Positions 33,625 through 62,741 of a stretch of DNA of 64,000 bases are shown here, in pieces (position 1 is the stretch's first letter; each line of letters begins with the position of its first letter). Source of the DNA: Accumulibacter sp. GTDB lineage: Bacteria > Pseudomonadota > Gammaproteobacteria > Burkholderiales > Rhodocyclaceae. The notes beneath the pieces are model-generated. The model did no database searches. It had not been told where the DNA came from and saw only the letters and a list, made by a program, of their open reading frames with translations. A program made the position numbers and the translations under genes. Where the stretch lies: assembly GCF_036625275.1 (NCBI RefSeq), contig NZ_JAZKUD010000006.1:11716-75715 (forward strand). The letters run 5' to 3'.

Positions 33625-33653
33625 TTGAATTATTGAAATTTGAAGTGTATGCT
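33625..33653 (+). promoter_or_regulatory. Sigma70-like promoter upstream of the riboswitch
   Basis: TTGAAT-N17-TATGCT in an AT-rich tract about 20 nt before the aptamer. Confidence 0.6.
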
Positions 33654-33674
33654 GGATTCCATAGTCTCACTGAA

Positions 33675-33758
33675 AAGGGCAAACCCGTCGAAAGGCGGGG
33701 ACGCAAAGTCACCGATCTAACGGAAACGGCATGTTTCCCAGGATGGCGGGGCCGCCAG
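33675..33758 (+). ncRNA. Cyclic di-GMP-I (GEMM) riboswitch
   Basis: GGCAAACCCGTC-GAAA-GGCGGG-GACGCAAAG..CCGATCTAA...ATGGCGGGGCCGCC fits the consensus: GNRA tetraloop, receptor-type P2 and closing P1. Confidence 0.9.
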
Positions 33759-33934
33759 GCTAACGGAGACAGCGTCCGGACAAATTCCCCAGTCTTGGTC
33801 GCAGTCGATCCACCTCCAGCCCGTCGGATCTCCAGAAAGTTTCATCTCTGCCCAACGGTTGACCTTGCACCAGCCCGCAGTTTTTGCGGCCAGGCCGTGC
33901 GTCTTTTTGGCGCCAGCGACAAGGAAAACCGACG

Positions 33935-34213
33935 ATGGCATTTCAATTCGACAAGGTAAGCAGCTTTCTCGGTGGCGACCGGTCGGTCGCCAAGCCTGAT
34001 CGTTTCCGTAGGCCTGTTGAAGCACGGACACGCGTGGCCTGGTTGCTGGGGCGACTGGGCGAAGTCAGTGGACTGGCCGTCTGCGCCACACACGCCACAA
34101 TTTCCAAGGTGTTTACCCTCAAGTTCGGCGGCTTGCATGCCGTTGATTCAAGCATACCCTTCGGCAGCTTGCCGTCATGCTTACCATTTAAGCAGCTCTG
34201 GCCAACCACATGA
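33935..34213 (+). CDS. Possible 92-aa leader ORF coupled to pilE
   Basis: AAGGA SD 9 nt before the ATG; the stop overlaps the pilE start (ATGA). No family recognised. Confidence 0.3.
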   Translation: MAFQFDKVSSFLGGDRSVAKPDRFRRPVEARTRVAWLLGRLGEVSGLAVCATHATISKVFTLKFGGLHAVDSSIPFGSLPSCLPFKQLWPTT

Positions 34214-34638
34214 AAGCGAATTCCGGATTCACCCTGATCGAGGTGATCAGCGTCATCGCGATCATCAGTATTCTGGCGGCGATCGCCGTTCCAAATTACA
34301 TCGACTATCTGACCAAGGGGCGGATCACCGAGGCGGTTGGTGCGCTCGCCAGTATGGAGGTCAGGATGCAACAGCATTTCCTCGATGAGCGTACCTATGT
34401 CGGGGCCTGTGCGGCCGGTACGGTGGCACCTCTGCCGACCAATACCAGCAATTTCACGTTTACATGCTCCGGTCTTGGCGCGGCGGCTTATCAGGTGGAT
34501 GCCACCGGGAAGAGCAGCATGGCGGGCTTTCAATACCGGATTACAGCGGCTGGCAAAAGCACGGTTGCCCTGCCAAGTGGCTGGACTCTCCCGAGTCCGA
34601 ATACCTGCTTCGCGCTGAATAAAGCCGGGGGGTGTTGA
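34210..34638 (+). CDS. pilE: Type IV minor pilin PilE
   Basis: Prepilin site G/FTLIEV followed by A.IA.PNY..Y..K.R..EA. Confidence 0.9.
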   Translation: MKANSGFTLIEVISVIAIISILAAIAVPNYIDYLTKGRITEAVGALASMEVRMQQHFLDERTYVGACAAGTVAPLPTNTSNFTFTCSGLGAAAYQVDATGKSSMAGFQYRITAAGKSTVALPSGWTLPSPNTCFALNKAGGC

Positions 34639-34641
34639 GCG

Positions 34642-35121
34642 ATGTTGGGCCATCCGCGTGGATTCACCATGGTCGAAGTTCTGGTGGTCATTACCATCCT
34701 GAGCGTTCTGCTGGCGTTTGGCGTTCCGGCCCTCGGTACCTATACGGGAAATGTCCGTCTGCGGACGGCCGCGGAAAAGGTCCTTGCCGACCTGCAGAGG
34801 GCTCGCAGCGAAGCCATTCGCCTGAACAGCAATTCCCCGCCGTTCTTTCCCTCGGAGACGCCAGCTTCGGTGGTGATCACCAGCAGCGTGAACGACAGTA
34901 GCGGTGGGCATGATCTCGTGTTCACTCCGTTCGGTGGAACCACCCTGGCGTCTACCGCGGTGTACACCTTCACCAATCCGGTTGCCGGGGCCTGCCATGC
35001 GGATGGTGGCCCGATACGCTGCCTGAATGTTTTTATAACCACGGGTGGCGGGGCTCGCCTGTGCGACCCCGGCCTGACCACCGCTCAAAAAGCGGCGGGT
35101 GATACGAGGGCATGTCCATAA
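34642..35121 (+). CDS. fimT: GspH/FimT family minor pilin
   Basis: G/FTMVEV, A..L.ADLQ.ARSEAI and F.PFG. Confidence 0.85.
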   Translation: MLGHPRGFTMVEVLVVITILSVLLAFGVPALGTYTGNVRLRTAAEKVLADLQRARSEAIRLNSNSPPFFPSETPASVVITSSVNDSSGGHDLVFTPFGGTTLASTAVYTFTNPVAGACHADGGPIRCLNVFITTGGGARLCDPGLTTAQKAAGDTRACP

Positions 35122-35630
35122 TGAAGACTCTTGAACGTTCTCAATCCGGCAGCGTGTTGCTGGAGGCACTGATCGGCATTCTGATCTTTTCTCTGGGCAT
35201 CCTGTCGATGGTGGCGCTGGGAGCCACGGCAGTCAACGTGCAGGCCGATGCACAGTATCGCACCGAGGCGATGAATCTGGCCGAGCGAATCTTGAGCCAG
35301 ATCTGGACCGGAGTCGACCGGACCCAGGAAACCATCAATGGAGTCGTCATGTCCGTGGTGAGCACCAGCTCCCTCAACAATTACCAGCACTTCAGCACTG
35401 GGGACAACTGCGTATTCACCGGGTCGGCTTCGACCATGCCGGCGGTTGTCGACTGGGTCGCCACCTTGCTGCCTACTGGCAAGCCTTCCCCGTTGCCCGG
35501 CTCGACCGCGGGAAGACAGCAAATCAAGGTGGTTCCTGCGAACAACAACCAGGTCAGCATCACGATTTGCTGGCAGACGCCTTCGGATAACAAGGTGCGC
35601 CACTACACCCTGGTGAGCTATGTCAACTGA
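35121..35630 (+). CDS. pilV: Type IV minor pilin PilV
   Basis: G/SVLLEALI..LIFSLGIL; C-terminal V.ITICWQ.P. Confidence 0.85.
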   Translation: MKTLERSQSGSVLLEALIGILIFSLGILSMVALGATAVNVQADAQYRTEAMNLAERILSQIWTGVDRTQETINGVVMSVVSTSSLNNYQHFSTGDNCVFTGSASTMPAVVDWVATLLPTGKPSPLPGSTAGRQQIKVVPANNNQVSITICWQTPSDNKVRHYTLVSYVN

Positions 35631-36732
35631 TTTCCCGCTGCGACGCATCCTGGCGCACAAGAGTGCGCCGATGCGTTTTGGCAGGGGCTTCACGCTGACC
35701 GAGTTGCTGGTCGGCGTGGCGATCGGATTGATCGGCATCATCGCCATGTTCCACGTCCTGTCGACGTGGGACAAGACGAAGCGGACGACCGCTGCCGGGA
35801 GCGATGCACAGATTGCCGGGGCGGTGGGCTTTTTCCGCCTCGAGCGCGATGTCAAGCAGGGAGGCATGGGTTTTGGCATGGCCAAGAGTCCGGTGATGGG
35901 TTGTAACGTTTCCACAGTCGTTAACGCAACGGCCACGACGACGGCACGGACTGCATTCACGTTTCCTCTGGTGCCCGTGAGGATCATTCAGGGGGCCAGT
36001 GGTGCGCCCGACGGCTTGCAGGTGCTTTATGGCAATTCCACCTTCTTCACCGCCGAGCAACCCTTCAAGGCATCCACCAGCACCAGCAAGAAAACCGAGT
36101 CGCGAAATGGTTTCAAGGTGGGTGATGTGGTGGTCGTTTCTGACGGTGCGTCGAATTGTGCGTTGATCGAAGTCTCCAGCGATACCAATGCCGATTTGCT
36201 GACGCTCGACCACAACGGGCTGTTGCGCTTTAAACCCGGTCCGGGAGCGGCCTTCAGTTCCGGCCTCCTTTTCAACATGGGCAAGGAACCCCAGCTCAAC
36301 CTCTGGCAGGTGTCCAATGGGACCCTGGTGCTGACCGATGGCTTGTATCGCAATACCACCATCTCGGTCGCCGACGGGGTGATCGATCTGCAGGCACAGT
36401 ATGGCATCGACAGCGATGGCGACTACAAGGTCGATACCTGGCAGGATGCCGATCCGGCCGACTGGACCCGTCTGCTGGCGGTGCGTGTATCGATCCTGAC
36501 ACGCAGCCAGCAGTATGAGCCCTCGCGCGCCGGCCCCGTTTATGTCACCGCCACGGCGCCGGTCTTGTCCTGGCTGGACAGCAGCAATGCCGCGATCCCC
36601 TTCACCATGAAAAATGTCGACGGTACCGATGACGATAATCCCGACAATGACAACGACTGGCGGAATTATCGCTACCGCGTCTATGGTGGGGTGATTTCCC
36701 TGCGCAACATGGTCTGGGGTCTCTCGCCATGA
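35620..36732 (+). CDS. pilW: Type IV minor pilin PilW
   Basis: G/FTLTELLV; C-terminal LQAQYG.D, VRVSIL.RS and YRY.V....ISLRN. Confidence 0.88.
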   Translation: MSTDFPLRRILAHKSAPMRFGRGFTLTELLVGVAIGLIGIIAMFHVLSTWDKTKRTTAAGSDAQIAGAVGFFRLERDVKQGGMGFGMAKSPVMGCNVSTVVNATATTTARTAFTFPLVPVRIIQGASGAPDGLQVLYGNSTFFTAEQPFKASTSTSKKTESRNGFKVGDVVVVSDGASNCALIEVSSDTNADLLTLDHNGLLRFKPGPGAAFSSGLLFNMGKEPQLNLWQVSNGTLVLTDGLYRNTTISVADGVIDLQAQYGIDSDGDYKVDTWQDADPADWTRLLAVRVSILTRSQQYEPSRAGPVYVTATAPVLSWLDSSNAAIPFTMKNVDGTDDDNPDNDNDWRNYRYRVYGGVISLRNMVWGLSP

Positions 36733-37316
36733 GCACGCTGGCAAGGCCGGCTGCCCTCCATGCAGGTTCGCCGGGCCATCAGCAAGGCATGGTAGTTCTG
36801 ATTGCACTGGTCATGCTGGTCGCCATGACCATGGCCGGTCTGACCATGATGCGCGGGACCGGGACCGGTCTCGGGATTGCCGGCAATCTGGCTTTCAAGC
36901 AGACGGCCACTTCGGTGGCGGATGTCGGTGTGGAAAATGCGATTGCCTGGCTGACCAATCCCCTGCGCACATCCGAGGTTCTCAAGACCGACGACACCGC
37001 CGCCGGCTATTACTCGTCATGGGCGATCGACTTTTCGCCGATGACCTATGACTGGACGAATTCGAAATTGCTCACCGCCGATGACGGTTTGGGAAATGAA
37101 GTGCGATACGTCGTTCATCGTCTCTGCGAGACGGCTGGTCTGGCCCCGAACGCCGTCCTCCAGAAGTGTGCGACGGTGAATACACCCTGTGCAAGTTGTT
37201 CGAAGGGGGGCGATGCCAGTTCGCTGATCGATTCGGTTCAACCCTATTACCGGATCACTTCACGGGTCAGGGGACCGCGAAATACGGTCAGCTATGTCCA
37301 GGTGATCATGTATTAG
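36729..37316 (+). CDS. pilX: Type IV minor pilin PilX
   Basis: G/MVVLIALV (no Glu at +5), IAGN.AFKQ and YYRIT.RV.GPRNT. Confidence 0.88.
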   Translation: MSTLARPAALHAGSPGHQQGMVVLIALVMLVAMTMAGLTMMRGTGTGLGIAGNLAFKQTATSVADVGVENAIAWLTNPLRTSEVLKTDDTAAGYYSSWAIDFSPMTYDWTNSKLLTADDGLGNEVRYVVHRLCETAGLAPNAVLQKCATVNTPCASCSKGGDASSLIDSVQPYYRITSRVRGPRNTVSYVQVIMY

Positions 37317-44166: not shown

Positions 44167-44178
44167 GGCTCGCGTTTG

Positions 44179-44997
44179 ATGGTCAGGATCTCGATGAATG
44201 GATTGCTTGAGTGCTGGCGTTCGGAAATTCGGGCACCAGAGAACCGTTATCTGTGGGCAGCGCTGGCTTGCTCGTTCGGCCTGCACATCCTGTTGATGCT
44301 GTTCACCAGCGGCGCCGGACGCTCGGACGGGGTAAGCCTGTTTCCTCCTTCTGCCGCTCGTTCGGCACCGATCTTGCTGATGGCGAGTCTTGCGGAGTTC
44401 CGTCGGGCCAGTGTTTCAGAGCCTGCGGAGCCGCATACCTCCGAGGTTCCTGAACCTTTAGCGCAGATCCAGGAATCACCAGCCAGTATCGCCCCGACCA
44501 TCATGCAGGAGGTCCCGAAGGAGACGCGTCCTCCTGATCGCCATGGTGCGGCGAACTCATCGGGATCACCGGAGTCTTCGGCACGTGCGGAAGCGGTTCC
44601 GACTGCCGCGCGGCACGCCGCGAGCGCCGAGCAGGCCCGCGCCGACGAGGATGCTGCTCGCCTTGCCCGGCACGCAAGCTATGGGCTGGCCAGCCTGCTG
44701 GATGTGCCGCCGGTGCCCTTGTCAGACATTCAACCGGAGTATCCGGAGTCGGCCGGGAATCAACAGGGGACGGTCGTCTTGCGACTCTTCATCAGCGCCA
44801 GCGGCGATGTGGATGAACTTTTCGTCGTCCGTGCATTGCCGAGCGGTTTTTTCGAGGAGGCGGCACTGACGGCATTCGCGTCAGCGCGCTTCTCGCCAGG
44901 CATGCACCATGGTCGTGCGGTCAAGAGCCAGATGGCGGTGGAGGTACAGTTCGTTCCCTTCAACCGGGGCGCCGGCGTTTCCGGAAGAGGGTATTAG
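44179..44997 (+). CDS. TonB family protein (N-terminal TM, Pro/Ala linker, TonB C-terminal domain)
   Basis: ALACSFGLHILL; P.YPE.A...G.V.L...I...G.V and FEEAAL.A....RF.PG. Confidence 0.85.
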   Translation: MVRISMNGLLECWRSEIRAPENRYLWAALACSFGLHILLMLFTSGAGRSDGVSLFPPSAARSAPILLMASLAEFRRASVSEPAEPHTSEVPEPLAQIQESPASIAPTIMQEVPKETRPPDRHGAANSSGSPESSARAEAVPTAARHAASAEQARADEDAARLARHASYGLASLLDVPPVPLSDIQPEYPESAGNQQGTVVLRLFISASGDVDELFVVRALPSGFFEEAALTAFASARFSPGMHHGRAVKSQMAVEVQFVPFNRGAGVSGRGY

Positions 44998-58091: not shown

Positions 58092-60671
58092 ATGAACGTT
58101 GAAATGGAAAAAGAAAATGCGCCGCCGGTAGAGGCGGTCGGCGATCCGCTGGTGGGGCGTGAAGACCGGCGCATCGGACTCAGTGTGGACGCACTGAAAC
58201 GTGCCATGCTCGACAAACTGGTCTATGTGCAGGCGCGCTTTCCGCAGGTGGCGACGCGGCGTGACTGCTTCATGGCGCTCGCGCAGGCGGTACGCGACCG
58301 CCTGCTGCAACGCTGGGTACAAACTGCGCGCACCTATCGCGATCGGGGCAGCCGTACCGTCTGTTACCTGTCCGCCGAATTCCTGATCGGTCCGCAACTC
58401 GGCAACAACCTGATCAATCTCGGAATCTTCGACAAGGCCCGGCAGGCCACCCAGGAATTCGGACTCGATCTGGAGATGCTGCTCGACCAGGAAGAGGAGC
58501 CGGGGCTCGGCAACGGTGGTCTCGGACGCCTGGCGGCGTGTTACCTCGACTCGTTGGCAACTCTCGAAATTCCCGCTATCGGTTATGGCATTCTGTACGA
58601 GTTCGGTATCTTCACGCAGGCGATTCGCGATGGGCAGCAGATCGAGCTGACCGACAAGTGGTTACGTGCCGGGAGTCCGTGGCTGATCCACCGTCCGAGT
58701 ATTGCTTTCGACATCAAGCTCGGTGGTCATACCGAATTTCAGTTCGAGGCAAACGGCGAACGCCGCCTGCGCGTGCAATGGGTCCCGGCAAAGGTGGTGC
58801 GCGGGACCGCCTGGGACATGCCGGTGTTGGGTTACGGAGTGAACACCCCGAACCGGCTCCGGCTGTGGAGCGCCGAGGCGCCGGAAAGTTTCGATTTCGC
58901 GGCCTTCAATGCCGGTAACTACTATCAGGCAGTCGACGCCCAGATTCGCTCGGAGACCATCACCAAGGTGCTGTATCCGAACGATGAAACGGAAGCGGGC
59001 CAGGAACTCAGGCTCGAGCAGCAATACTTCTTCGTGGCTTGCTCACTGAAGGACATGATCCGCCTGCAACTGCAGCGCGAGAAGAACCTCGATCACTTCG
59101 ACGAGAAGTTTGTGGTCCAGCTCAACGATACGCATCCGTCGATCGCTGTGGCGGAACTGATGCGCTTGCTGGTCGATGAATACATGATGGAGTGGGACCC
59201 GGCCTGGGCGATTACCCGCAAGACCTTCGCCTACACCAACCACACGCTGCTGCCAGAGGCGCTCGAGAAATGGCGACTGGCCTTGTTCAAGCGCGTGCTG
59301 CCGCGGCATTTCGAGATCATTTGCGAGATCAACCTGCGGTTCCTCGACGAAGTGCGGATTCGCTATCCGGGCGACGACGCGCGGCTGAGAAGGATGTCGC
59401 TGATCGACGAGGATGGTGCGCACTACGTGCGCATGGCGAATCTGGCGGTCGTCGGCAGCTTCGCGGTGAATGGCGTGGCCAGGCTGCATTCTGAACTGCT
59501 CAAGTCGGATGTCCTGAAGGACTTCTACGAGCTGTGGCCGGAGAAGTTCAACAACAAGACCAACGGCGTCACCCCGCGCCGCTTTGTGGTCCTGGCGAAC
59601 CCGACGATGTCCGGGTTGATCGAGGAAACCATCGGTAGCGGCTGGGTGACCGATATGACACGGCTGCGCGAACTCGAACCGCATGCCAACGACCCCGCCT
59701 TTTGCGAATCCTGGCGGCGGATCAAGAACGGCAACAAGAACCGCTTGGTCGGCGAGATCAAACGTTTTGTCCATGTCGATGTCGATCCGGCGTCGATGTT
59801 CGACGTCCAGGTCAAGCGTTTTCATGAGTACAAGCGGCAGCACCTCAACATCCTGCATGTGGTTTCCCTGTACAAGCGCCTGAAGGACAATCCCGACCTC
59901 GTGACCGCGCCCCGCACCGTGATCTTCGGGGGCAAGGCGGCGCCAGGTTATTTCATGGCCAAGCTGATCATCCGGCTGATCAACGCCGTCGCCGACGTGA
60001 TCGGTCGCGATCCGGCGATGCACGGCAAGCTGCAGGTGGTTTTCTTTCCGAATTACAACGTCAAGAACGCCCAGTCGATCTTTCCCGCAGCCGATCTGTC
60101 CGAACAGATTTCACTGGCCGGCAAGGAAGCTTCCGGGACTGGCAACATGAAGTTCCAGATGAACGGTGCGCTGACCATCGGTACGCTCGACGGGGCCAAC
60201 GTCGAAATCCGCGAGGAAGTCGGCGACGACAACTTCTTCCTGTTCGGGATGAGCACGCCCGAGGTCATGGAACTCAGGAGGACGGGCTACCGACCCCGGG
60301 CCTACTACGATGCAAACCCGCATCTGCGTGAAGTGATCGACCTGATCGCCAGTGGCTTCTTCACCAAGGGAGACCGCGAGATCTTCCGGCCTCTCGTCGA
60401 TCATCTGCTCAACCACGATGAGTACATGGTCCTGGCCGACTTTCAGTCGTACATTGATTGTCAGGCCAGGGTCTCGGAGGCCTATCTCGATGTCGATCGC
60501 TGGACGCGGATGTCGATTCTCAACGTGGCACGTTCGGGTTTCTTTTCTTCCGACCGGGCGATCCGCGAATACTGCGACGAGATCTGGAAGGTGAAGCCGG
60601 TGCGTATCGAACTCAGTCACCTGTCGGGCGAGGACATACAGTTTACGCGTGCCCTTGCCGGAGCAGACTGA
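58092..60671 (+). CDS. glgP: Glycogen/alpha-glucan phosphorylase
   Basis: GLGNGGLGRLAAC, QLNDTHP, YTNHT..PEALE, KRFHEYKRQ and EASGTGNMK. Confidence 0.97.
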   Translation: MNVEMEKENAPPVEAVGDPLVGREDRRIGLSVDALKRAMLDKLVYVQARFPQVATRRDCFMALAQAVRDRLLQRWVQTARTYRDRGSRTVCYLSAEFLIGPQLGNNLINLGIFDKARQATQEFGLDLEMLLDQEEEPGLGNGGLGRLAACYLDSLATLEIPAIGYGILYEFGIFTQAIRDGQQIELTDKWLRAGSPWLIHRPSIAFDIKLGGHTEFQFEANGERRLRVQWVPAKVVRGTAWDMPVLGYGVNTPNRLRLWSAEAPESFDFAAFNAGNYYQAVDAQIRSETITKVLYPNDETEAGQELRLEQQYFFVACSLKDMIRLQLQREKNLDHFDEKFVVQLNDTHPSIAVAELMRLLVDEYMMEWDPAWAITRKTFAYTNHTLLPEALEKWRLALFKRVLPRHFEIICEINLRFLDEVRIRYPGDDARLRRMSLIDEDGAHYVRMANLAVVGSFAVNGVARLHSELLKSDVLKDFYELWPEKFNNKTNGVTPRRFVVLANPTMSGLIEETIGSGWVTDMTRLRELEPHANDPAFCESWRRIKNGNKNRLVGEIKRFVHVDVDPASMFDVQVKRFHEYKRQHLNILHVVSLYKRLKDNPDLVTAPRTVIFGGKAAPGYFMAKLIIRLINAVADVIGRDPAMHGKLQVVFFPNYNVKNAQSIFPAADLSEQISLAGKEASGTGNMKFQMNGALTIGTLDGANVEIREEVGDDNFFLFGMSTPEVMELRRTGYRPRAYYDANPHLREVIDLIASGFFTKGDREIFRPLVDHLLNHDEYMVLADFQSYIDCQARVSEAYLDVDRWTRMSILNVARSGFFSSDRAIREYCDEIWKVKPVRIELSHLSGEDIQFTRALAGAD

Positions 60672-60779
60672 GTGACCACGCCGGGGCCGGCCTGCCCCGG
60701 TCGCATGGCGCTTGCTGTGCAAGTCGTAAAGGTGGTGCCCGCCGCACTGGCTGACCGCCGGCAGATTGGCGACCGGCGG

Positions 60780-62741
60780 CTACCAGCGCCGGACCTTGAT
60801 GATGTGCGCCATCTTGGTGGTTGGAGCAAGTTCGACATAAGCCGTCGGACCATGCCAGCGATAGCGCTCGCCGGAGAGCAAGTCGTGCGCCTGGTATTGC
60901 TCGTCCTCGGGAATTCCGAAGGTGCCCAGTGGCACATGTAGGATCGAGTGGTGTGTGTGGAAGGGGTCGAGATTGACCACGCAGATGACAATGTCCGAAC
61001 GGTCTTCGGTCATTTTGGCATAGGCAAGGATATTGGGGTTGTCGGCGTTCAGGAAGAGCACATTGTTATAGGTCTGCAGGGCAGGGCATTCCTGGCGGAT
61101 CTGGTTGATTCGGGTGATGATGTCGACGATGTTGCCCGGGGCTTTCCAGTCGCGCATCTTGATTTCGTATTTCTCCGAATCGAGGTACTCTTCCTTGCCG
61201 GGAATCGCCTCGTTTTCGCACAGCTCGTAGCCGCTGTAGATGCCGTAGACGCTCGACAATGTTGCCGCTAGCACGGCGCGCATGATGAATGCCGGGCGAC
61301 CGCCGAACTGCAGGATCGGTGGCAGGATGTCGGGGGTATTGGCAAAAAAGTTGCCGGTAAAGTATTCCTTCATCTCGCCACAGGTCAGTTCGCTGACGTA
61401 CTCGGTCAGGTCATGCTTATGATCGCGCCAGGTAAAGTAGGTGTAGGACTGGGCGAAACCGACTTTCGCCAGCAAGCGCATCATCTTCGGTTTGGTGAAG
61501 GCTTCGGCCAGGAAGATGACTTGCGGGTGTTGCCGGTGCACTTCACCGATCACCCATTCCCAGAACGGCACCGGTTTGGTGTGCGGATTGTCGACCCGGA
61601 AGGTGGTGACGCCCTTGCCGATCCAGAACAGGAAAATCTTAAGCATTTCCTGCCACAGCCCGGCACGGTCGCTGGTCCCGAAATTGAGTGGGTAGACATC
61701 CTGATACTTCTTGGGCGGGTTTTCGGCGTACTTGATCGATCCATCGGGACGATGGAAAAACCAGTCCGGATGCTCGGCGACATAGGGATGGTCGGGTGAA
61801 CAGTTCATCACATAATCGAGCGCAATCTCGATTCCCAACTCACGGCAGGTGGCGACAAACTGGTCCCAGTCGTCCCAGGTACCGAGTTGTGGTTCCAGCG
61901 CCATGTGGCCGCCGTGTTTGTTGCCAATTGCCCAAGGACTGCCGACGTCGCCCGGTACAGCCACCAGACTGTTGTTTTTGCCCTTGCGAAAGCTATGGCC
62001 AATGGGGTGGATCGGCGGCAGATAGACAACGTCGAAACCCATCGCCTTGATGTCGTGCAGGCGACGAATGCTGTCCTGCAGCGTGCCATGCCGGTACGGC
62101 AGGTTGCCTTGCGAACGCGGGAAGAACTCGTACCAGGCAGCAAAACGGGCAATGGGCCGATTGACCATGATCGTCAAGGGCGGTGTCATTTGATGGCCCT
62201 CGCTGCGATCAGGGTAACTGGCCATCATGTTGCGCATGACCTTGCCGATGCCAAGGTCGATGGCGCCACGCTGTTCACCGGCTGCCAGCGCAGTTTCGAT
62301 GGCTGCAATGATGCCCAGCATGCGGCTGAGATCCTCGCCGTGTGCCACGGCAGCCGACTTCTTGAGGACCACCAGACCCTCCAGCAGTTCGCTCCGGAGG
62401 TCGGCACCGGGCACGCTTTTCTTGGTGATTTCGTCCACCCACGACAGATAGATCTCGGCGTAGGCCTCGATGGTGTACTCCCAACGACCGATCGCGGTGA
62501 CGGTAAACTCGCCGAACCAGCGGTCATTGTCACCCTGATTCATCGCGCTTTCCAGCCACTCAGTCTCCCCGGCCTGGCGTGCCTTGAGCACGGCCGCGAG
62601 CTTGAAGTGGCCCTCCTTGTAAATGTCGGCACTGACGGTGACTTTTTCACCGACGACACGCTTGATGGGGAAACGGCCGCCGTCCACTTGCGGCTCGACC
62701 GCTTCGATGACCACACGAGGGTATTCTTTGGGAATCATCAT
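60780..62741 (-). CDS. glgE: Alpha-1,4-glucan:maltose-1-phosphate maltosyltransferase
   Basis: VDGGRFP.KR, WYEFFPRS, YLPPIHPIG, YAENPPKKYQD, FRVDNPHTKP and LAEAFT. Confidence 0.96.
   Translation of the reverse strand: MMIPKEYPRVVIEAVEPQVDGGRFPIKRVVGEKVTVSADIYKEGHFKLAAVLKARQAGETEWLESAMNQGDNDRWFGEFTVTAIGRWEYTIEAYAEIYLSWVDEITKKSVPGADLRSELLEGLVVLKKSAAVAHGEDLSRMLGIIAAIETALAAGEQRGAIDLGIGKVMRNMMASYPDRSEGHQMTPPLTIMVNRPIARFAAWYEFFPRSQGNLPYRHGTLQDSIRRLHDIKAMGFDVVYLPPIHPIGHSFRKGKNNSLVAVPGDVGSPWAIGNKHGGHMALEPQLGTWDDWDQFVATCRELGIEIALDYVMNCSPDHPYVAEHPDWFFHRPDGSIKYAENPPKKYQDVYPLNFGTSDRAGLWQEMLKIFLFWIGKGVTTFRVDNPHTKPVPFWEWVIGEVHRQHPQVIFLAEAFTKPKMMRLLAKVGFAQSYTYFTWRDHKHDLTEYVSELTCGEMKEYFTGNFFANTPDILPPILQFGGRPAFIMRAVLAATLSSVYGIYSGYELCENEAIPGKEEYLDSEKYEIKMRDWKAPGNIVDIITRINQIRQECPALQTYNNVLFLNADNPNILAYAKMTEDRSDIVICVVNLDPFHTHHSILHVPLGTFGIPEDEQYQAHDLLSGERYRWHGPTAYVELAPTTKMAHIIKVRRW

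Follow-up and report, generated by a model that had tools for sequence, protein, structure and literature searches.

Genes and regulatory features of the locus

The stretch of DNA analyzed here (the window; 64,000 nucleotides of the Accumulibacter sp. assembly GCF_036625275.1, contig NZ_JAZKUD010000006.1) carries on its forward strand a promoter-like pair of hexamers, a c-di-GMP-I aptamer, a long leader and a run of type IV pilus genes (Table 1). We refer to the genome of the window as G000 and to its congeners by similar G-numbers, 40 genomes of the genus having been examined. The gene set pilE-fimT-pilV-pilW-pilX-position-pilY1, which a sequence-only reading of this DNA had described as a minor-pilin/giant PilY1 operon, was confirmed by Pfam and NCBIfam. 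The features of a type IVa minor-pilin/PilY1 operon are present, with PF07963 (N-methylation motif) in three of the ORFs, together with PF16074 and the PilY1 beta-propeller family PF05567. The TonB_C gene is probably the last gene of the operon, and is followed by a convergent ORF. A second minor-pilin/PilY1 cluster was found in the same genome by tblastn with the window proteins (C27:20380-27760), and a genome-wide aptamer search located no riboswitch near it.

Upstream of the promoter, the opposite strand encodes TIR and STAND genes (Pfam). Homology to the 91%-identical locus of G014, and to that of G028, begins only ~8 nt upstream of the -35 hexamer (~33617). Thus, the left flank lies outside the unit and the TIR/STAND pair is not shared with G014; judging from these alignments, the left flank of the pilus operon varies between genomes. 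The sole promoter-like site listed by the scanner near the locus, TTGACT-N18-GATACT on the minus strand (33513-33484), falls within the 5'-terminal part of the TIR ORF as listed, so the true TIR start may be further downstream.

Table 1 Features of the leader and the pilus operon, in window coordinates.
Feature	Position	Strand	Remarks
Promoter-like TTGAAT (33625-33630), 17-nt spacer, TATGCT (33648-33653)	33625-33653	+	Read from sequence
c-di-GMP-I aptamer	33669-33760	+	RF01051 71.1 bits, RF03167 66.2 bits; complete
C-rich, G-poor linker, rut-like	33780-33877	+	C 37-40%, G 18-21% in sliding 78-nt windows
Conserved block CCCGUCGGAUCUCC	33820-33833	+	Complementary to SD-to-AUG spacer 33927-33934; helix 1, 79% of cells paired
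Anti-SD CCUUGC	33863-33868	+	Pairs with (G/A)CAAGG 33919-33924 (RNAalifold); 90.7% of cells paired
SD AAGGA (33921-33925) and ATG (33935-33937)	33921-33937	+	Inherited from DUF1631 gene (alignments)
Stump ORF, 92 codons	33935-34213	+	Codons 1-38 homologous to DUF1631/PacR N-terminus; TGA overlaps pilE ATG (ATGA)
pilE-like prepilin, MKANSG/FTLIE	34210-34638	+	Pfam N_methyl, ComP_DUS; NCBIfam pilin models; without own SD
fimT/gspH-like pilin	34642-35121	+	Pfam
pilV-like	35112-35630	+	TIGR02523 (PilV) top NCBIfam match but below its cut-off
pilW	35620-36732	+	PF16074
Unnamed 195-aa ORF in pilX position	36729-37316	+	
Giant PilY1, 2250 aa	37414-44166	+	PF05567 153 bits, residues 1764-2086
TonB_C-domain protein	44176-44997	+	Pfam, NCBIfam; 10 nt past pilY1

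The aptamer and its promoter

The consensus GEMM aptamer proposed in the sequence-only reading was borne out by Infernal searches against Rfam. In a per-model genome search, RF01051 covers the aptamer from model position 1 to 87 and scores 71.1 bits against a cut-off of 35. The ligand-contact bases are canonical in the RF03167 alignment (G at model position 10, A at 37 and C at 75), positions which we take to be G20, A47 and C92 of the Vc2 structures. The canonical G precedes GGCAAAC and the canonical C comes after the second helix. The first hairpin is capped by a GNRA loop (GAAA, 33690-33693, within CGAAAG, 33689-33694), and the second is long, with a 20-nt insertion in its helix that the model tolerates. 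On score and contact bases, we assign the RNA to the canonical c-di-GMP-I class. An assignment to the c-di-GMP-I-GGC variant, or to an RNA sensing another ligand such as 3'3'-cGAMP, could appeal to the Rfam clan competition, in which cmscan names RF03167 (66.2 bits, E 1.9e-13) above its cut-off of 59, but the canonical model scores higher. Furthermore, the variant-defining G at model position 37 is replaced by A (GCAAAG, where the variant consensus reads GCGAAG), an A shared by all 11 of the homologous aptamers aligned, and the base taken as the G20-equivalent is G and not the A of cGAMP-type RNAs. We consider a different ligand class very improbable.

The TTGAAT-N17-TATGCT pair noted in the sequence-only reading is indeed present, and its hexamers are invariant in the three closest loci (G000, G014 and G028) while the flanks vary. 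It aligns with TTGCAT-N17-TAGATT/TAGCAT in the DUF1631-linked and G006 copies of the module. The promoter scanner omits the pair because its hexamers agree with the consensus at only 8 of 12 positions, which places it below the threshold. On the plus strand, the scan gave no promoter-like site between the aptamer and pilE.

The leader is probably derived from a DUF1631/PacR gene

The leader before pilE had been described as ~450 nt long. This length stands (449 nt from 33760 to the ATG at 34210), but the leader is not inert sequence, since it holds a transplanted expression platform and the 5' stump of a DUF1631 gene. The aptamer, the leader and the first 30 nt of ORF 33935-34213 share 72-73% identity with loci of two congeners. 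At both of these loci, the module heads a gene of >500 aa belonging to the DUF1631 family (PF07793; named PacR in NCBIfam), for which a link to c-di-GMP-related regulation has been described in Xanthomonas (PMC9543026). Across the 40 genomes, this aptamer lineage with its leader and start codon heads DUF1631 in seven, and the aptamer lineage heads the minor-pilin operon in four (G000, G014, G028 and G006). DUF1631-linked copies in named relatives come from Rhodocyclaceae and Azonexus MAGs.

A DUF1631 gene, reported as full-length and with the same promoter and leader, is also kept elsewhere in G000 (on another contig), G014 and G028. At these DUF1631 loci the aptamer has been deleted from G000 and G028, and in G014 an insertion together with point changes has disrupted it; an Rfam search of the three loci returned no remaining aptamer match. 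Both aptamer copies, DUF1631-linked and pil-linked, are intact in G006. Since relatives keep the arrangement at DUF1631, the stump and promoter are homologous and the original copies remain, we propose that the pilin operon acquired, ahead of its first gene, a copy of a ~440-nt cassette that runs from the promoter through the aptamer, leader and SD/ATG to the first ~38 codons.

In G028, the DUF1631 gene is split into two parts on C47, at 60665-61069 (profile positions 6-140) and 100000-101688 (positions 156-741), ~39 kb apart, which suggests a large insertion. In G018, the DUF1631-linked aptamer (C12, 88464-88564) reads AAAAGAGCAAAC, with A at the G20-equivalent, the signature of cGAMP-sensing GEMM-Ib RNAs. 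A metagenome scan for further copies of the module returned only near-identical sequences. The 41-nt aptamer core GCAAACYCRTCGAAAGRYGGGGACGCAAAGYCACCGRTCTA is present in >120 contigs, mostly from Steroidobacteraceae, Woeseiaceae and other Gammaproteobacteria, where genes other than DUF1631 follow it, and DUF1631 lies downstream in only 7 of the 81 matches in a genome-contig scan. Thus, the aptamer core alone does not mark this lineage. One core locus (L121) has two tandem copies 228 nt apart.

The stump ORF is open up to pilE, which has lost its SD

Homology of the stump to DUF1631 was established by profile comparison, in which a profile built from three stumps aligned with one built from DUF1631 N-termini, the match spanning residues 1-38 (hhalign probability 92%, E 5.7e-7). 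The G028 stump alone also matches DUF1631 by BLASTP (46% over 37 aa, E 3e-7); BLASTP with the G000 stump gave no match to a DUF1631 protein. The Pfam PF07793 model does not match the stump, homology being confined to residues 1-38. By these comparisons, the stump appears to be a remnant of DUF1631 and not a member of the family.

Between G000 and G014, substitutions in the stump fall on the three codon positions in the ratio 8/12/16 (7/7/7 within the first 38 codons), with pilE showing 4/3/18. The G028 stump carries indels of -6, -1, +3 and -2, and its distal third is read in another frame. The G006 stump is not alignable. This pattern points to a stump without protein-level constraint. One might take ORF 33935-34213 for a functional small protein, given its good SD, its ATG start and a frame that is open in all homologues, but the spread of substitutions over the codon positions, the frame of the C-terminal third in G028, the loss of alignment in G006 and the lack of a Pfam match leave this notion with hardly any credibility.

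In G000, G014 and G028, no stop interrupts the stump frame until precisely the ATGA overlap with pilE, despite the frame-shifting indels of G028; only ~5% of shuffles behave in this way. In G006, the frame that begins at the homologous start (SD AAGGAGG) meets no stop codon before pilE and is fused to it in frame (chance ~6%). These statistics are modest, because the module is present in only four loci, two of which are from close relatives. The canonical pilE ATG has become ATC in G006, and none of the in-frame ATGs further inside is preceded by an SD.

pilE is without an SD in all four riboswitch-bearing genomes (G000, G014, G028 and G006), whereas three riboswitch-less PilE orthologues (62-63% identical) have AAGGAG, AGGGAG or CAGGAG 5-7 nt before the ATG. 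Because the pilE SD is absent from the former and present in the latter, control most likely acts at the ribosome-binding site of the stump and reaches pilE through translational coupling, perhaps together with Rho polarity. The loci as a group favor the inference of the sequence-only reading that the operon is read directly by c-di-GMP at the RNA level: the canonical aptamer lies on the operon strand behind a conserved promoter, the layout is kept in four genomes, an aptamer of a different lineage heads the minor-pilin operon in a fifth, and the SD of pilE is lost only where the riboswitch is present.

The block at 34120-34180, which includes a small hairpin (CGGCAGCUUGCCG), is nearly invariant in G000, G014 and G028, partly recognisable in G006 and absent upstream of the riboswitch-less pilE orthologues. 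It could hold a promoter or a protein-binding site missed by the consensus scan. SD-less initiation occurs in bacteria. Both points would suit a scenario in which the captured DNA brought in an aptamer that is now a fossil, expression of the operon relies on its own signals within 34050-34209, and pilE is translated without an SD. Against this, the aptamer is almost invariant in the four genomes while the linker diverges, unused aptamers degenerated rapidly at the DUF1631 loci of these genomes, 34050-34209 contains no promoter-like site, and c-di-GMP-I aptamers have been recruited to pilin operons repeatedly. We therefore judge a fossil aptamer to be improbable.

Leader structure and mode of control

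The leader folds into a predicted SD-sequestering domain. In an alignment of nine sequences, 85.9% of its cells are paired, compared with <=50% when the pairing partners are slid, and five pairs show compensatory changes. The helix formed with the anti-SD has compensatory changes in three of its six pairs, all from one sequence (G026). Two hairpins lie between the two elements that pair with the ribosome-binding site. The expression platform thus looks translational. A scan of the leader and the homologue alignments gave no conserved intrinsic terminator.

Nine homologous leaders were folded with the aptamer free and with the aptamer locked; the SD was mostly paired in both states, with no consistent shift that would indicate an ON or an OFF switch. 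An OFF switch was also considered from complementarity, as the blocks 33820-33833 and 33857-33870 pair with the 3' strand and core of the aptamer in most homologues. This candidate was rejected, the excess over shuffled-aptamer controls being only 0 to -1.4 kcal/mol and other windows pairing better.

Control might instead be mainly transcriptional, through a ligand-controlled intrinsic terminator at 33885-33907 (a hairpin and T-run) or through Rho acting in the C-rich leader, with the stump being irrelevant. The scanner does list a terminator-like site at 33885-33899, with the tail CGTCTTTTTG, and the excess of C over G in 33780-33877 fits the Rho variant. However, one such site is little different from the mean of 0.8 found in shuffles. 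G028 has an interrupted T-run (TCCTTATGG) and all DUF1631-linked homologues have a shorter one, and the run sits in the loop of a conserved hairpin, not after one. Mainly transcriptional control would also leave the loss of the pilE SD and the maintained open frame unexplained, and we regard it as unlikely. A contribution by Rho is compatible with translational control as well, and by its composition the linker 33780-33877 would suit a Rho loading site.

Taken together, we assign a probability of roughly 0.7 to the reading in which a c-di-GMP-I cassette captured from DUF1631/PacR controls the pilE-fimT-pilV-pilW-pilX-pilY1(-tonB-like) operon via the inherited SD/AUG and coupling through the stump. 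The promoter, aptamer, SD-sequestering leader domain, SD/start codon and ~38 codons would have been copied from the DUF1631/PacR leader and joined to the pilin operon. The aptamer would most likely govern access to the inherited SD/AUG (33921-33937). Ribosomes that gain access would translate the 92 codons of the stump and terminate at the pilE start (ATGA), and SD-less pilE would be translated by termination-reinitiation. When untranslated, the stump may expose the C-rich leader to Rho, leading to polarity over the 10-kb operon.

Comparison with known riboswitches and pilus systems

The riboswitch class and the kind of gene context are known; the proposed capture of a cassette with an exapted stump ORF is new. 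Text searches of the literature returned no paper linking a c-di-GMP riboswitch to Gram-negative minor-pilin/PilY1 operons. Translational riboswitches with secondary Rho-dependent polarity, and translational coupling through leader ORFs, are represented by systems of the thiM, ribB and mgtA type. The present leader shares with them an SD-sequestering helix downstream of the aptamer, and translation of the leading ORF would set downstream expression. It differs in that the leading ORF is the pseudogenised 5' end of the former target of the cassette and not a dedicated leader peptide.

Examples of the c-di-GMP-I (GEMM-I) class are Vc1 (gbpA) and Vc2 (tfoY) of Vibrio cholerae (Sudarsan et al. 2008; reviewed in PMC7266159). 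The aptamer fold, the ligand-contact bases, the location in a 5' UTR and the tie to motility, pilus and adhesion genes are common to these RNAs and to the one described here. Unlike in Vc1 and Vc2, the aptamer is separated by 175 nt from its most likely target, the start codon at 33935, and by 449 nt from pilE, and the platform and gene stump are inherited from another gene. In Clostridioides difficile, a c-di-GMP-II riboswitch is located upstream of pilA1, encoding a type IV pilin (mentioned in PMC6916266). Both cases place a c-di-GMP riboswitch at type IV pilus genes, the control being predicted in ours, but the pilA1 switch is of the other aptamer class, regulates the major pilin of a Gram-positive organism and works through transcription anti-termination. 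Here, a class I aptamer heads the genes for a minor-pilin/PilY1 priming complex in a Gram-negative organism. Myxococcus xanthus has alternative minor-pilin/PilY1 sets that are differentially expressed (PMC9109919, PMC7541494). It resembles G000 in having more than one such set per genome, one of them with its own regulatory input; the M. xanthus sets are regulated by a phosphorelay, whereas the predicted input here is an RNA sensor of c-di-GMP.

If the proposed mechanism is correct, a pilus-tip adhesin set including the 2250-aa PilY1 would be under direct control by c-di-GMP at the RNA level. Given the second, riboswitch-less tip set in the same genome, c-di-GMP could then choose which pilus tip is made. 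The locus would also be a natural example of a riboswitch gaining a new regulon: an entire expression cassette would have been copied along with the beginning of the gene it formerly served, and the ORF left over would act as a coupler. This bears on the design of portable riboswitch parts.

Recurrence of c-di-GMP-I aptamers at minor-pilin operons

In G007, pilE-fimT-pilV-pilW-pilX-pilY1 is preceded by a c-di-GMP-I aptamer that scores 62.8 bits and belongs to another lineage. This lineage heads a different gene in five relatives, the product of which we take to be a secreted peptidase. Over 260 nt, which take in the aptamer, the leader and the first ~8 codons of that gene, G007 shows 80% identity to the locus in G005, after which the homology ends. 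G007 thus represents another capture of this kind, independent of the first. Its stump stops ~140 nt short of pilE, so coupling does not hold for every case. G016 carries a third aptamer lineage, followed by its intact 89-aa gene and then by a pilin operon. Beyond the genus, an aptamer scoring 74.8 bits lies 170 nt ahead of a prepilin gene in a Burkholderiales MAG.

We tentatively extend the proposal to the genus, as a conjecture somewhat more open to doubt than the reading of the window locus itself. The minor-pilin/PilY1 operons of the genus may repeatedly have been placed behind portable c-di-GMP-I cassettes from unrelated genes (DUF1631/PacR and the putative peptidase gene), with the DUF1631-derived stump exapted as a leader ORF that would pass control at the ribosome-binding site to SD-less pilE by termination-reinitiation or, in one species, by in-frame fusion.

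A genome search with RF01051 found four c-di-GMP-I aptamers in G000. The three outside the window locus are at C5:27771-27857, C39:19213-19300 and C7:87347-87434. They are followed, in turn, by genes for a ~400-aa membrane protein, a >475-aa protein beginning VALASWTQQQILAQLDSG and an 89-aa protein (MKTYIATIETPGG).
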